Source of the DNA: an uncultured Planctomycetaceae bacterium
GTDB taxonomy: Bacteria; Planctomycetota; Planctomycetia; Planctomycetales; Planctomycetaceae
DNA length: 64,000 nt
Direction of reading: 5' to 3'
NCBI GenBank assembly: GCA_963815195.1
Contig: CAWFGE010000005.1
Span: 19,774-83,773, forward strand
Positions 10,386 through 14,645 of the stretch are shown here, one piece after another; the first letter of the stretch is position 1, and each line of letters starts with the position of its first letter. The notes beneath the pieces were generated by a model. The model ran no database searches. It had not been told where the DNA came from and saw only the letters and a list, made by a program, of their open reading frames with translations. The translations under genes were made by a program, and so were the position numbers.

Positions 10386-10597
10386 CAGCCGTCCCCTTTT
10401 TTGCGTGGACCCATTCGTTGCGAGCGCCGCACGACCATCGCGCGCCGTTATTGCCGGATTGAGCGGAATCGAAGCATCCGCCAGAATAACGCGCGGCGGG
10501 GGTGGGGTAAAGCACGCGGAAAGAAACGCCTTGAGCATGAGGCGGGCGGGAAGAACTCGCGACGACGAGCGGCCGATTCGGGCGCGAGAGAAGCAAG

Positions 10598-10685
10598 CGG
10601 AAGGCATGGGATTCGAACCCACATCTCCGATGTCGGAGGCACGCATTAGCAGTGCGGCCCGGCCAACCCTATCCGGCTACCTTCC
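10598..10685 (-). tRNA. tRNA-Ser(GCT)
   Basis: GGAAGGU acceptor, anticodon loop CU-GCU-AA, long variable arm, GGUUCGAAUCC; no CCA encoded. Confidence 0.85.
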
Positions 10686-10698
10686 AGTCTGTTTTCAA

Positions 10699-10774
10699 TC
10701 ACCGAGGCGGGATTCGAACCCACAAAAATCCCAGGTTCTCGGCCTCTTCGCGTTTCCAGTTTGCGTCCCCGGTC
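10699..10774 (-). tRNA. tRNA-Leu(GAG), degenerate
   Basis: T arm GGGUUCGAAUCCC, loop CC-GAG-AA (C33), weak anticodon stem, G1.G72 mismatch. Confidence 0.6.
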
Positions 10775-10785
10775 AGAAGAAAAAG

Positions 10786-10854
10786 TAGCGGGTCCAGGGG
10801 TTGCACCCGGCGGGTGTGGCTTATGAGACCTCACTGAGCACTGGCTCACCCGCG
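10786..10854 (-). tRNA. tRNA-Met(CAT), atypical
   Basis: GCGGGU/ACCCGC acceptor with C1.U72, short D arm GAGC-CAGU-GCUC, loop CU-CAU-AA, T loop UGCAA. Confidence 0.65.
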
Positions 10855-10931
10855 TCAAGTTTTTGAGTTTGCGCGTTTCGGCTTCACACGCTGAGAGGCT
10901 CTGTCAGAGCAAAAATTTGGGTTGAAAAAAT

Positions 10932-10993
10932 TAGCCGCAGGGGGGGCACCGCCCGCAGGGGGGCACCGCCCGCAGGGTGGTCCGCCCCGGTTT
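10932..10993. repeat. REP-like element (resembles family B) with internal tandem duplication, in a tRNA spacer
   Basis: TAGCCGCAGGG...GCCCCGGTT ends match 23645-23670; the unit CCGCAGGGGGG(G)CACCGC is repeated about 2.5 times. Confidence 0.55.
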
Positions 10994-11084
10994 TCCTTGG
11001 GTTAGAGCGAGTCCGACCGAAAAGGTTCGCGCTCGCGCTTCGATTTCGTGGCGTGGAACGCTTGAGCCCTTTTCAACAATCGAG

Positions 11085-11165
11085 TGACCAAGGGGAGAGT
11101 TGAACTCCCACGCCCGAAGGCACGGCGTTCTGAGCGCCGCGTGTCTGCCATTCCACCACTTGGCC
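11085..11165 (-). tRNA. tRNA-Leu(CAG)
   Basis: GGCCAAG acceptor, GGUGGAAUGGCAGACAC D arm, loop CU-CAG-AA, variable arm GCC-UUCG-GGC. Confidence 0.9.
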
Positions 11166-11173
11166 GAGAATAA

Positions 11174-11245
11174 TGACCCGTATGGGAATCGAACCCATGC
11201 CGCGAGATTGAGGGCCTCGCATCCTAGCCGCTAGAAGAACGGGCC
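11174..11245 (-). tRNA. tRNA-Glu(CTC)
   Basis: GGCCCGU/ACGGGUC acceptor, Glu-type D arm UUCUAGCGGCUAGGA, loop CC-CUC-AA. Confidence 0.85.
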
Positions 11246-11285
11246 GAGTTGTTATCAGGATCAGCAATGACGGAGCGACGCGGAG

Positions 11286-11360
11286 TTGCGGGGGCAGGAA
11301 TCGAACCTGCGGACGCGTGGTTCAAAGCCACGTATTTCTACCAGCAGAAACTACCCCGCA
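11286..11360 (-). tRNA. tRNA-Gln(TTG)
   Basis: U1-A72 acceptor UGCGGGG, stem CGUGG/CCACG, loop CU-UUG-AA, GGUUCGAUUCC. Confidence 0.88.
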
Positions 11361-11403
11361 TTCTGACTTCACACGCTGCTCGATTCGGCACGCCAATTTA
11401 TTG

Positions 11404-11503
11404 AAATCCGAAGCACGAAATCCGAAATCTCAAACAAATTGGGATTTGAAGATTTCCGAACATTGGAATTTGTTTCGGATTTTGGGATTCGGATTTCGGA
11501 TTT
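11404..11503. repeat. Inverted repeat of AAATCCG heptamers (family F) in a tRNA spacer
   Basis: AAATCCGAAGCACGAAATCCGAAATCTCAAACAAAT ... ATTTGTTTCGGATTTTGGGATTCGGATTTCGGATTT; a single arm recurs at 52536-52557. Confidence 0.75.
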
Positions 11504-11547
11504 TGCCGCACGGTGTTCGATGGACGAATTCACGCCCGGTTTATGAG

Positions 11548-11619
11548 AGGGACGGGCGGGACTCGAACCCGTGCGCTGGTGCTTAACAGGCACCCGCTCT
11601 GCCGCTAAGCTACCGACCC
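11548..11619 (-). tRNA. tRNA-Asn(GTT)
   Basis: GGGUCGG acceptor (one U.U mismatch), stem GGUGC/GCACC, loop CU-GUU-AA. Confidence 0.85.
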
Positions 11620-11650
11620 AAACAATTAAACTGTAAGTCGACAGTGGAGG

Positions 11651-11790
11651 GGGTGGCTGGGTGCAAAGGAATGTTCCAAGACAAAAGGAGATTTGAAGCC
11701 TGGGGCCGTGTGAGATTTTTCTCGCCCGGCCACAGCCCCAGCATTCGCAGTTCAAGCCTTATTCCAAGGGGATTTGCGCCCCAGCCACCC
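11651..11790. repeat. MITE/REPIN-like element (family E) in a tRNA spacer
   Basis: Terminal inverted arms GGGTGGCTGGGTGCAAA / TTTGCGCCCCAGCCACCC with a nested CTGGGGC...GCCCCAG hairpin. Confidence 0.7.
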
Positions 11791-11829
11791 AAACGCTTGG
11801 CGTTTGAGTCATCGTCCGTTGGCGAAAAG

Positions 11830-11904
11830 TTGCGGTGGCAGGAATCGAACCCGCGTCAAGACGGTTCAGAGCCGCCGGCCCGTACCAACACAGGCCCCAC
11901 CGCA
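11830..11904 (-). tRNA. tRNA-Gln(CTG)
   Basis: UGCGGUG acceptor, loop CU-CUG-AA, GGUUCGAUUCC; clearly related to the Gln(TTG) gene. Confidence 0.85.
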
Positions 11905-11908
11905 ATAG

Positions 11909-11980
11909 AGCACCCGGTGGGACTCGAACCCACGTTGCCGCATTACGAGTGCGGTGTCCTCGCCGCTGGACGACAAGTGC
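11909..11980 (-). tRNA. tRNA-Thr(CGT)
   Basis: GCACUUG/CGGGUGC acceptor, stem CCGCA/UGCGG, loop CU-CGU-AA. Confidence 0.85.
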
Positions 11981-12011
11981 CGGTTTTGGTGGAAAATCCA
12001 TCCACCCGAAG

Positions 12012-12084
12012 CGCCTCGTAGGGGAATCGAACCCCTGTCTGCGGATTGAAAGCCCGCTATCCTATGCCGTTAGAAGAACGAGGC
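12012..12084 (-). tRNA. tRNA-Glu(TTC)
   Basis: GCCUCGU/ACGAGGC acceptor, loop CU-UUC-AA, GGUUCGAUUCC. Confidence 0.9.
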
Positions 12085-12102
12085 AAGTTGTCGAGTTTTG
12101 AG

Positions 12103-12174
12103 TGGGTTGAGAGGTGCTCGAACCCTCGTCTGCGGCTTTTCAGGCCGCCGCTTTACCGTCTAAGCTATCAACCC
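12103..12174 (-). tRNA. tRNA-Phe(GAA), first gene of the array
   Basis: GGGUUGA/UCAACCC acceptor, stem GCGGC/GCCGC, loop CU-GAA-AA. Confidence 0.85.
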
Positions 12175-12177
12175 AAT

Positions 12178-12207
12178 AAAAAGGCCCGATGCCAGATGAC
12201 ACCGGGC
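12178..12207 (-). terminator. Intrinsic terminator immediately 5' of the tRNA array (putative attenuator)
   Basis: RNA GCCCGGUGUC-AUCU-GGCAUCGGGC-CUUUUU, ending 3 nt before tRNA-Phe. Confidence 0.7.
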
Positions 12208-12238
12208 TGCGATGAGGATTCGCAAAAATGCCAAAGTG

Positions 12239-12340
12239 TCACCGAACCCCAGCACCGTTCAGCCGCGGTTGGCCGCAAAACGGTGCGGGTTCTTGGCTTT
12301 CGAGCCGCGCTTCAGGTTGAAAGAATTGAAATCGCAACAT
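12239..12340 (-). CDS. Putative 33-aa leader peptide of the tRNA array (MLRFQFFQPEARLESQEPAPFCGQPRLNGAGVR)
   Basis: ATG at 12340 to TGA at 12239, lying between a candidate promoter and the terminator; no clear Shine-Dalgarno. Confidence 0.5.
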   Translation of the reverse strand: MLRFQFFQPEARLESQEPAPFCGQPRLNGAGVR

Positions 12341-12383
12341 GGGATTTGGTTTGAGTGAGAGATCGTTGTGGGTTGCTGGTGTT

Positions 12384-12410
12384 TTAGACGCCCTTGGCCG
12401 GGGGAGGTTC
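12384..12410 (-). promoter_or_regulatory. Candidate ECF sigma promoter for the tRNA array
   Basis: GAAC-N16-CGTCTAA on the minus strand, matching the general ECF (G)AAC/CGT architecture. Confidence 0.45.
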
Positions 12411-12600
12411 GCGCCCGTTTGCGTTTTTCTGTACGTTGGCCGGGTCGGAGATTTTCAGCGTTTTCAAGTTTCGGATGAGTTTTCGAGCCGGGCTCCCACG
12501 GGAAGCGAACCGCCCCGCGACCGCCGCGCTAGTTCTTCGCGGGGCATTGATTTACCATGCGCTTCAGCCAATGCAATCCCATCAATCCAAGGGCATTCTC

Positions 12601-14645
12601 ATGCGATGGTTATTTTGTTCGTTGAGTGTTTTGCTCGCCGGGCCTGTTTTGGGCGATGATTTGACGGTGCTGGAAAAGCCCCGGCCGCAGATGCTGCGGG
12701 ATGTGCTCCGGGTCCAGGTGCATCAAGCGCTCGCTGCGAGACGGGCGGCTTATGAAGGTCGCACCGAGCCCGCGGCGATCCCCGAATGGCAGCGAGACTT
12801 GCGGGCCAGGTTCGTGGAAAGTCTCGGCGGATACCCCGAGCGCACGCCGCTCAAACCCCAAATCGTCGGGCGGTTCGAGTCCGATGGCTACCGCGTGGAG
12901 AAGCTCATTTATGAAAGCCGGCCCGAGTTTCACGTGACGGCCACGCTCTATCTGCCCAACGCGAAGCCGCCCTGTCCGGCGGTGCTCTTGCCCTGTGGCC
13001 ATACGGAAAACGGCAAGGCCGCCGGGACCTATCAGCGCGTGGCCATTCTGCTGGCGAAGAACGGGATCGCGGTGCTGTGTTACGACCCCGTCGGCCAGGG
13101 CGAACGAAAGCAAATTCTCAAAACCAACAAAGCCGGCGAGCCTCTCGCCGCCGGGCAATTTTCATCGACCAGCGAGCATTCCATCACGGGAGTCGCACCG
13201 ATTCTCTTGGGGCAGTGCCTGGCGAGCTATCGTATCTGGGACGGCATCCGGAGCATCGATTATCTTTGCTCCCGGCCGGATATTGATGCGAAGCGCATCG
13301 GCTGCACGGGGAACTCCGGCGGCGGTTTAATGACGAGCTATCTGGCCGCGCTCGATGAGCGGATCCAGGCCGCGGCCCCAGGGTGTTTCATCACCACGAC
13401 CCGCATCAAAAACGAACGGCCCGGCCCCGGCGATGCGGAGCAGAACATCTTCGCCCAGACCGCCTATGGTTTGGACCACGCGGATTATCTGATGCTCGCC
13501 GCCCCGCGTCCGGTGCTGATTTGCTCCGCCACCGAGGATTTCGTGCCCGTCGAAGGCGCGTGGAATTCCTTCCGCCAGGCCAAGCGGCTCTACACGCGGT
13601 TGGGCGTTCCGGAACGGGTCGACCTGGTCGAGGCCGATGAAAAGCACGGCTTCTCGAAGCCACTCCGCCTCGCCGTCCTCCAATGGATGAGGCGGTGGCT
13701 GCTCAATGTCGATGAACCCGCGGACGAACAAGAGTTCGAGGTGCATACCGAACAGCAACTCACATGCACGCCCCGCGGGCAGGTACTTCTGCTCAAGGGC
13801 GCGAAATCCCTCAACGATCTGTACCGCGAACAGGCGCGGGAACTGAAGAGCCAGCGCGAGAAGTGGAACCGGGAAATTCCCGCCGCGGCGCGGATCGCCA
13901 AGATTTGCGAACTCATCCGCGCCAAGGGTTGGGATCAGCTTCCGCCGCCCAAGGCCCGCACCGCCGGAAGGCTCGACCGCAACAGTTGCCAAATCGAAAA
14001 ACTGATTCTCGCACCCGCCGAGGGCATCGTTCTGCCCGCTTTGTTATTCGAACCTCCGGACGCGGGGAATAAGATCGTGTTGTATGTTCACGGTGAGGGA
14101 AAACACGCTGATGCGCAGGTGGGGGGCAGAATTGAACAGCTCGATGAAAAAAGGCCGGAGGGTGTTCGCGGTCGACCTGAGGGGTTACGGCGAAACCGAA
14201 TCTCCCGCCTGGCGGTTCAACAAGACCTACATGGGCACGAATGCCGCGGAGTATTTCATCTCGTATATGCTGGGGCGATCGCTGGTCGGCGCGGGCGGAG
14301 GATGTTCTTTCCGCCGCCAAGTATTTGAAGCAGCGGTTTCCGAATGCCGACCTGGAACTCGTTGCGGTGAGCCGGGCCGGAATACCGGCTCTGCATGCGG
14401 CCGCGATTTCGCCGAATGCCTTTGTGGCGGTGCATCTCGATCAAACGCTGGACTCCTGGAGCCGCGTGATCGAAACTCCTGTCACAATCGACCAATTGGA
14501 AAACACCGTCCACGGCGCACTGCGGTTTTTCGACTTGCCGGATCTCGTGGACCTCGCGGGCCCCGGCAAGGTGACGATCACGAATCCTCAGGACGCCGCC
14601 GGCCAGCCCATTCGGTCCGAGCCGGCGGAAGCGTCGCAGCGATAA
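12601..14645 (+). CDS. Secreted two-domain alpha/beta hydrolase (acetylxylan esterase-like), frameshifts near 14148 and 14292
   Basis: Signal peptide, LPCGH, YDPVGQGER, nucleophile motif GCTGNSGGG, DAEQN; second domain VDLRGYGET continues in other frames. Confidence 0.8.

Follow-up and report, generated by a model that had tools for sequence, protein, structure and literature searches.

A candidate ribosome-dependent transcription attenuator ahead of a spare tRNA array in Planctomycetaceae

The window analysed here is a 64,000-nucleotide (nt) stretch of DNA from an uncultured Planctomycetaceae bacterium (GenBank assembly GCA_963815195.1, contig CAWFGE010000005.1, positions 19,774 to 83,773 of the forward strand). 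Its minus strand carries an array of nine tRNA genes, in the order Phe-GAA, Glu-UUC, Thr-CGU, Gln-CUG, Asn-GUU, Gln-UUG, Glu-CUC, Leu-CAG and Ser-GCU, preceded by a leader in which a promoter-like box, a short open reading frame (ORF) and an intrinsic terminator follow one another (Table 1). A preliminary description of this region had listed these elements, had pointed to a complementarity between TGACAC at the leader stop codon and GTGTCA in the terminator, and had read the whole as a ribosome-sensing attenuator of the tRNA array. The box, the 33-codon ORF, the hairpins and the terminator, which according to a terminator scan has a hairpin of 10 pairs, 7 of them G-C, and a loop of 4 nt, were all found where they had been placed, and the complementarity proved longer than described, extending over 9 bp (GGUGACACU/GGUGUCAUC). 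The results on the ORF, on the pairing and on its masking by a simulated ribosome were all positive and favour the attenuator interpretation, which is developed below.

Table 1. Coordinates of the leader elements and of the tRNA array in the window.
Feature	Position	Strand	Basis or remark
Promoter-like box, GAAC-N16-CGTCTAA	12384..12410	-	GAACC at 12410-12406, 15-nt spacer, then GCGTCTAA
5' untranslated leader, box to ATG	12341..12383	-	Read from sequence
Leader ORF, 33 codons + TGA, peptide MLRFQFFQPEARLESQEPAPFCGQPRLNGAGVR followed by the stop	12239..12340	-	TGA at 12241-12239
GGCUCGA within the ORF, pairs with UCGGGCC (12189-12183)	12300..12306	-	Minimum-energy folds, window copy only
Region 2, antiterminator 5' strand GGUGACACU, stop codon inside	12235..12243	-	Minimum-energy fold
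TGACAC (stop and next bases)	12241-12236	-	Sequence
Spacer hairpin UGCGA (12224-12220)/UCGCA (12212-12208), between regions 2 and 3	12208..12224	-	Sequence and fold
Intrinsic terminator stem GCCCGGTGTC/GGCATCGGGC, loop ATCT	12184..12207	-	Terminator scan
Region 3, terminator 5' arm	12207-12198	-	Common to terminator and antiterminator
Partner of region 2, GGUGUCAUC	12203-12195	-	Region 3 part 12203-12198 and loop bases 12197-12195
Region 4, terminator 3' arm	12193-12184	-	Terminator stem
U-rich terminator tail CTTTTTATT (CUUUUUAUU)	12175..12183	-	Ends one base ahead of tRNA-Phe
Nine-tRNA array, presumed regulated unit	10597..12174	-	ARAGORN; tRNA-Phe starts at 12174

A BLAST search of 61 related genomes had already revealed leader and terminator before Phe-led arrays, and a covariance model (R1) was built from 10 copies of the stop-to-terminator segment, with the terminator as its only structure. 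At E<=0.01, R1 matches 88 of 151 genomes of the family, representing 61 of 92 genera, and at E<=1e-4 it matches 72 of 151 genomes in a second sample. In a phylum-wide sample, the model was matched by 4/6 genomes of the family versus 0/144 of other families; two copies are known outside the family, one in another family of the same class (L006) and one in a record labelled Thermoguttaceae (L024). None of the 68 pattern matches in viral contigs fits R1. The pattern scan of genome contigs was too unspecific, yielding at least 120 stretches, with three relevant ones (L024, L064 and L104) among the matches listed. The copies studied further come from 76 loci: of about 160 listed R1 matches, 30 for which loci were at hand and 40 further high-ranking ones were taken, and 6 loci came from the preceding searches. 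The set does not extend to the lower-scoring matches. A tRNA gene lies on the same strand within 300 nt downstream in 70/76 copies, tRNA-Phe being the first in 38, and the gap to the first tRNA, which ranges from 0 to 276 nt, is at most 31 nt in 41/71. The promoter-like box is absent from all 25 leader-tRNA gaps of at least 60 nt, and this, together with the shortness of the other gaps, suggests that the arrays are most simply transcribed through the leader. Among 30 upstream ORFs analysed with Pfam, no conserved regulator or sigma gene was found beside the leaders; these are unrelated genes, including one full-length sigma-70 type and two transposases. Since the upstream genes differ from locus to locus, the leader and its array appear to form one unit.

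A few matches and loci have an unusual structure. Upstream of tRNA-Phe in a second array of one genome (L011, G001), an apparently decayed leader was read by eye, which keeps the box and the ORF start, has an in-frame TAG after three codons and is followed by no terminator before tRNA-Phe. An orphan terminator half lies at about 1504-1555 on the minus strand of L015 (G003:C12), a 3-kb locus with no tRNA. At L176 and L192 (G166), R1 also matches the opposite strand of the hairpins, with A runs on the other side, and these hairpins may act as two-way terminators. The region 250 nt upstream of tRNA-Phe at L008 (G036) contains, as judged by eye, a terminator-like hairpin with three tandem repeats of about 60 nt after it, in place of the usual leader.

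The leader ORF is maintained across the 76 copies. The TGA within GUGACAC closes an ATG-initiated ORF of at least 15 codons in 74 copies, versus 11 in frame +1 and 13 in frame +2, as would be expected if, in line with the preliminary description, homologous leaders share a short ORF whose stop overlaps TGACAC; ORFs of at least 25 codons are found in 72/76 copies in frame, versus 4 and 7 in the shifted frames. The two exceptions, inspected by eye, are a 33-codon ORF with a GTG start and one ORF apparently frameshifted in a C run. The ORF is also present in 9/9 further loci; among the copies it most often runs to 33 codons (19 copies) or 39 codons (16 copies). In all 76 copies the stop is a TGA that occupies bases 2-4 of the antiterminator strand. 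Shine-Dalgarno (SD)-like tetramers are found at positions -20 to -4 relative to the ATG in 25/74 leaders versus 3/74 in a control window; in the window copy no SD-like motif was seen by eye. The peptide alignment is loose (M-x-F/S-L-R-S-S-F ... FADQPAN ... PLRL), the ratio of nonsynonymous to synonymous change (pN/pS) is 0.70 in frame versus 0.81 and 0.97 in the shifted frames, and variability across the three codon positions is almost flat (0.568/0.535/0.586). A strongly conserved peptide was dropped from consideration on account of this flat periodicity and of a pN/pS weakly below that of the shifted frames. The combination of a kept ORF with weak constraint on its product suggests that what is conserved is that the ORF is translated and where its translation ends, as for a leader peptide. 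A role of rare codons was likewise rejected: in codon adaptation the two leaders of the window genome rank in the 19th-21st percentile, not a significant deviation, and the value for the whole family, for which the codon usage of the window genome served as a proxy, is unreliable.

The RNA of the window leader is predicted to be highly structured (-74.2 kcal/mol, z -4.56, with 0/200 shuffles as good), and its minimum-energy fold contains the 9-bp helix between the stop region and the terminator. A complement of 6 nt by itself could have arisen by chance, and it is the conservation in 76 homologous leaders that raises it above this level. In the window copy's own fold, pairing of GGCUCGA with UCGGGCC adds a second anti-terminating helix, and the two states of this leader, antiterminator at -69.9 versus terminator at -68.2 kcal/mol, are nearly iso-energetic in the folding model. 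On the alignment, the terminator is paired in 98.1 % of cells, with 15 double-change cells versus 2.1 in shuffles (0/500), and a U tract follows the hairpin in nearly all copies. The antiterminator (78 aligned copies, 8 aligned pairs) is paired in 93.3 % of cells versus 15-55 % when the partner is slid, so that the anticipated pairing of TGACAC with the GTGTCA arm is kept in homologues; it shows 9 double-change cells versus 4.0 in shuffles (6/500), among them A-U to G-C and C-G to U-A exchanges. As modelled, terminator and antiterminator are mutually exclusive.

When the segment from stop-15 to stop+12 was masked to simulate a terminating ribosome, the terminator formed in 73/75 folds, which agrees with the earlier proposal that a ribosome at the UGA would mask region 2 and permit termination. 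As long as the 3' arm of the terminator has yet to be made, the 5' arm is bound to the stop region in 50/75 folds. In the free full-length RNA, a further helix (1:2) plus the terminator is preferred in 66/75 copies, because codons 5-11 are paired there with a stretch that runs from the last codons across the stop into the bases behind it. The accompanying proposal, that read-through follows when the ribosome is absent, is compatible with the energies of the window copy and does not fit most of its relatives, which fold to the terminator. In 22 leaders of the 32-34-codon class, the 1:2 helix is paired in 66.2 % of cells versus 33-44 % when slid, with 24 double changes versus 13.3 in shuffles (0/500); RNAalifold, applied to a MAFFT alignment of the 22 full leaders, predicted the terminator alone, and the 1:2 helix was therefore counted on a hand-written structure. 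The strands of this helix explain the apparent conservation of the N- and C-terminal codons. The spacer hairpin is less well preserved, with at least 4 pairs in 49/75 homologues and a weak median z of -0.9.

A box of the form GAACC-N15/16-(G)CGTCT(A) was found, with a relaxed pattern, ahead of 61/74 leaders, the spacer being 16 nt in 39 and 15 nt in 20 and the distance from box end to ATG mostly 45-96 nt. A scan of the window's minus strand from 12175 to 12800 detected no sigma-70-like promoter. A weight matrix built solely from the boxes of other genomes was scanned over the whole 8.9-Mb window genome; it ranked the box of a 21-gene tRNA array 1st, that of the window leader 2nd and that of a second full leader copy, which lies on another contig ahead of tRNA-Glu, 6th. 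Sites of lower score lie ahead of a tRNA-Cys, of a tRNA-like gene and of the tRNA-Ser inside the window array. The remaining hits look like chance sites inside genes, and a wider regulon of the box was rejected for this reason. At the 21-gene array (L137, C12:573174-573209), the best-scoring GAACC/CGTCT box lies about 8 nt before the first tRNA, with neither leader ORF nor terminator, which indicates that this promoter type occurs both with and without the attenuator. In its -35 AAC and -10 CGT motifs, about 16 nt apart, the box has what we take to be a resemblance to promoters of extracytoplasmic function (ECF) sigma factors of group 4. No cognate ECF sigma factor was identified, nor was any gene neighbour conserved among the 30 upstream ORFs.

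Leader codons correspond to the tRNAs of the array that follows. In the window leader, 14/32 codons are read by its own nine tRNAs versus a genome share of 0.244 (P 0.013, a single post hoc test). Across 60 loci, a fraction of 0.343 of the leader codons can be read by tRNAs of the leader's own array, versus 0.265 for permuted arrays (z 9.5), and out of frame the match disappears (z -0.4 and -0.6). The difference persists when one leader is taken per cluster (37 clusters, 0.356 versus 0.251); clusters were defined at 70 % and 80 % identity, as single linkage at 60 % collapsed to 5 clusters and was unusable. The match peaks in the middle codons (z 7.9) and is confined to the amino-acid level (0.498 versus 0.406). 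In 15 pairs of leaders from the same genome, two of which come from sister species, the match to the own array exceeded that to the other array in 12, fell below it in 1 and equalled it in 2, compared with 4/9/2 and 6/7/2 in the other frames.

The array that the leader precedes is dense, with 9 tRNA genes in 1.6 kb, and in relatives 15 genes are seen in 2.2 kb. The whole genome has 97 tRNA genes, made up of a scattered set and three arrays of 9, 11 and 21 genes, and all nine array anticodons are duplicated by stand-alone genes elsewhere in it. As the array tRNAs share 51-76 % identity with these counterparts, the window array is best regarded as a second, divergent tRNA set. It resembles the long arrays of PMC8421152 in being dense and additional to stand-alone genes.

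Further features lie within the array itself. A weaker box (GAACC ... CGCTCTAAC) is found at about 11001-11033 on the minus strand, in the 400 nt that separate tRNA-Leu from tRNA-Ser, with a matrix score of 15.4 versus 25.3 for the main box; its position suggests that the last tRNA (Ser) may start separately. A weak tRNA-like Rfam match covers 10762-10852 (E 0.11). Between tRNA-Asn and tRNA-Gln, a long A+T-rich inverted repeat extends from 11395 to 11508 and is read as a long hairpin, since its Rfam matches are weak and of plant-miRNA type alone.

Together, these observations make it likely that the leader is a ribosome-dependent leader-peptide transcription attenuator gating a spare tRNA array. 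According to this model, transcription would begin at the conserved promoter-like box and the leader ORF would be translated as RNA polymerase proceeds. With fast decoding, the ribosome arriving at the UGA would cover the antiterminator 5' strand, and the terminator would form one base before tRNA-Phe. If the ribosome lagged or stalled within the ORF, the stop region would instead pair with the terminator 5' arm and the nine tRNAs would be transcribed. In relatives with the 1:2 helix, untranslated RNA would be expected to terminate too, as it folds into this helix plus the terminator, and a ribosome stalled in the ORF should be the sole inducer. The cells would thus probably reserve the production of extra tRNA for times of slow decoding. 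The general ribosome sensing of the preliminary description is retained here in that the switch would depend on the ribosome; the signal looks more specific than proposed there, the leader codons matching the tRNAs of their own array. As the leader amino acids mirror these tRNAs, the likely signal is that these tRNA species run short in usable form, and negative feedback on tRNA supply would be the likely result. An extension of this model, which we hold tentatively and with slightly more doubt than belief, is that each array is a self-contained homeostat with its own 'test ORF', that an ECF-type sigma factor provides a second input, and that this is a general and undescribed rule; shortage, damage or non-charging of the matching tRNAs would then stall the leader ribosome and cause replacements to be made. 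That the ORF is translated, that termination is conditional, what is sensed and which type of sigma factor acts are the parts of this scheme that we infer from sequence.

Several points weigh against the attenuator. Its support, which consists of anatomy, conservation, exclusive pairings, conservation of frame and codon match, is computational throughout; among the sequencing runs covered, this DNA is listed for one run of soil-metagenome DNA and for no RNA run. The genomes are kin and not independent, the shuffle controls take no account of relatedness, and the model to which the alignment was fitted comes from the same family. SD-like motifs are limited to about a third of the leaders, and constraint on the peptide, as judged from pN/pS and the flat periodicity, is weak. 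The high conservation of both strands leaves the antiterminator with modest covariation. The preference of most free RNAs for the terminator implies that read-through hangs on kinetics beyond these computations. The 1:2 helix is not universal, a duplex z below -2 being reached in 20/60 leaders, and it is absent from the fold of the window copy. The codon match has no synonymous component (745 codons read by an array tRNA versus 730 expected). Among 8 hold-out loci, the match was higher in 2, equal in 1 and lower in 5, a comparison unnormalised for array size and left indecisive by the shortness of the visible arrays.

These last two points also bear on the alternative that the switch is identical and that its signal is general translation stress, that is, any slowing of ribosomes, for example by ribosome-targeting antibiotics, on the pattern of the wblC/whiB7, bmrCD and toiL leaders, with the codon match a by-product of shared descent. 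The architecture would indeed answer any delay, and the long array of Anabaena is induced by translation inhibitors, as stated in the available text of PMC8421152 and PMC10272220. We nevertheless consider this alternative rather unlikely, as the match is frame-specific, holds for paralogous leaders within one genome (12/15 pairs) and reaches its peak in those codons that RNA pairing constrains least. The reverse emphasis, a switch made of RNA alone that responds to a protein, to a small ligand or, in the manner of a T-box, to a tRNA, with the open frame incidental, would fit the strong structure of the leader (z -4.56) and the conservation of its strands at the nucleotide level. It is improbable given that the ATG frame stays open in 74/76 copies despite indels, versus 11 and 13 in the other frames, that the codon match is specific to this frame, that no conserved neighbouring regulator was found, and that 12175-12600 gives no Rfam match at E<=1, to the T-box or to any other family.

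If the ORF were simply a gene for a small protein, ending in a terminator of its own and lying upstream of the arrays by chance, the tRNAs would be expressed through constitutive leak-through or from a promoter that escaped recognition, and the complementarity would have no regulatory role. Such a gene would account for the loosely conserved peptide pattern and for a pN/pS below 1. Against this stand the weakness of the peptide constraint and the coincidence of the conserved N- and C-terminal codons with the two strands of the 1:2 helix; the stop is a TGA within the pairing strand in 76/76 copies, most gaps are too short for a promoter and the longer ones hold no promoter-like box, which makes such a gene hardly probable. 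In the window, the hairpin lies directly against the 5' end of tRNA-Phe and might serve in 5' processing or stability of the pre-tRNA, or belong to a separate small RNA, with no conditional termination. The distance from hairpin to tRNA varies from 0 to 276 nt, a U tract is present in nearly all copies, and the conserved competing strand and the ORF would be left unexplained; this explanation is very improbable.

On the plus strand of the window, the divergent neighbour at 12601-14328 encodes an alpha/beta hydrolase (Peptidase_S9 and acetyl xylan esterase matches). It appears unrelated to the array, and its promoter must share the 425-nt intergenic region.

Attenuation of tRNA genes or arrays, of which the preliminary description knew no example, was not found described in the literature searched, subscription-only papers and supplements lying outside the search. 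The strings 'attenuat', 'terminator' and 'leader' are absent from the main text of PMC8421152, and 'attenuat' and 'leader' from that of PMC4758250. Long spare arrays occur in several phyla, and the only studied example, that of Anabaena, is under a repressor. If the model is correct, a trp-style device with a tRNA output operates across a bacterial family, and the translation machinery would gauge its own decoding speed and order tRNA directly. This would offer a concrete, testable mechanism for the silence and induction of arrays, carry leader-peptide attenuation over to operons that do not code for protein and to the Planctomycetota, and supply a compact device, found in nature, for sensing the tRNA supply. 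With at least 88 genomes, often in multiple copies per genome, the family is large enough for both mutational and comparative tests.

In the attenuators of amino-acid operons of E. coli and Salmonella (trpL, hisL, pheL, leuL and thrL), the position of a ribosome decides the fold of the leader. The general scheme of leader-peptide attenuation is outlined in the available part of PMC1183508. Like the trp-type attenuators, the planctomycete leader has a short ORF and competing helices 2:3 and 3:4, of which 3:4 is the intrinsic terminator, joined in many relatives by a probable 1:2 helix; the position of the ribosome would select the fold here too, and the leader is enriched in residues whose supply the controlled genes serve. 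It differs in that the output consists of tRNA genes, not of biosynthetic enzymes, in that the leader is longer (30-39 codons) and multivalent, and in that the stop codon itself lies in region 2; the window copy is without region 1, and there is no sequence relation, as judged from the lack of an Rfam match.

The nearest functional analogue appears to be the actinobacterial wblC/whiB7 system, in which, according to the portion of PMC7157823 available, attenuation involving an upstream ORF responds to translation-targeting antibiotics and the WblC regulon includes six tRNA genes. The likeness, an upstream ORF combined with transcription attenuation, is one of function; as far as that text goes, the gene controlled there encodes a transcription factor, the tRNA genes are not controlled directly, and the phylum is another. 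Leader ORFs that sense ribosome stalling are also described, in the text available, for bmrB-bmrCD of Bacillus subtilis (PMC4191407) and toiL of E. coli (PMC12121999). Unlike the planctomycete leader, these have as outputs, so far as described, an ABC transporter and a toxin-antitoxin system, respectively. The toiL leader reportedly acts through Rho rather than through an intrinsic terminator.

The closest counterpart on the side of the array is the trn operon of Anabaena sp. PCC 7120, a long array (L-array) that is silent unless translation is impaired, as described in the accessible text of PMC8421152 and PMC10272220, the former also naming Planctomycetes among the phyla with long tRNA arrays. 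A ribbon-helix-helix repressor, TrcR, binds direct repeats over the -10 box of the sigma-70-type promoter of the Anabaena array, according to the part of PMC10272220 available. The planctomycete loci differ from it, as it is described there, in promoter type, in having an attenuator and in that no conserved neighbouring regulator was found beside them. What the two systems would have in common, on the same description, is a divergent second tRNA set kept beside the stand-alone housekeeping genes.

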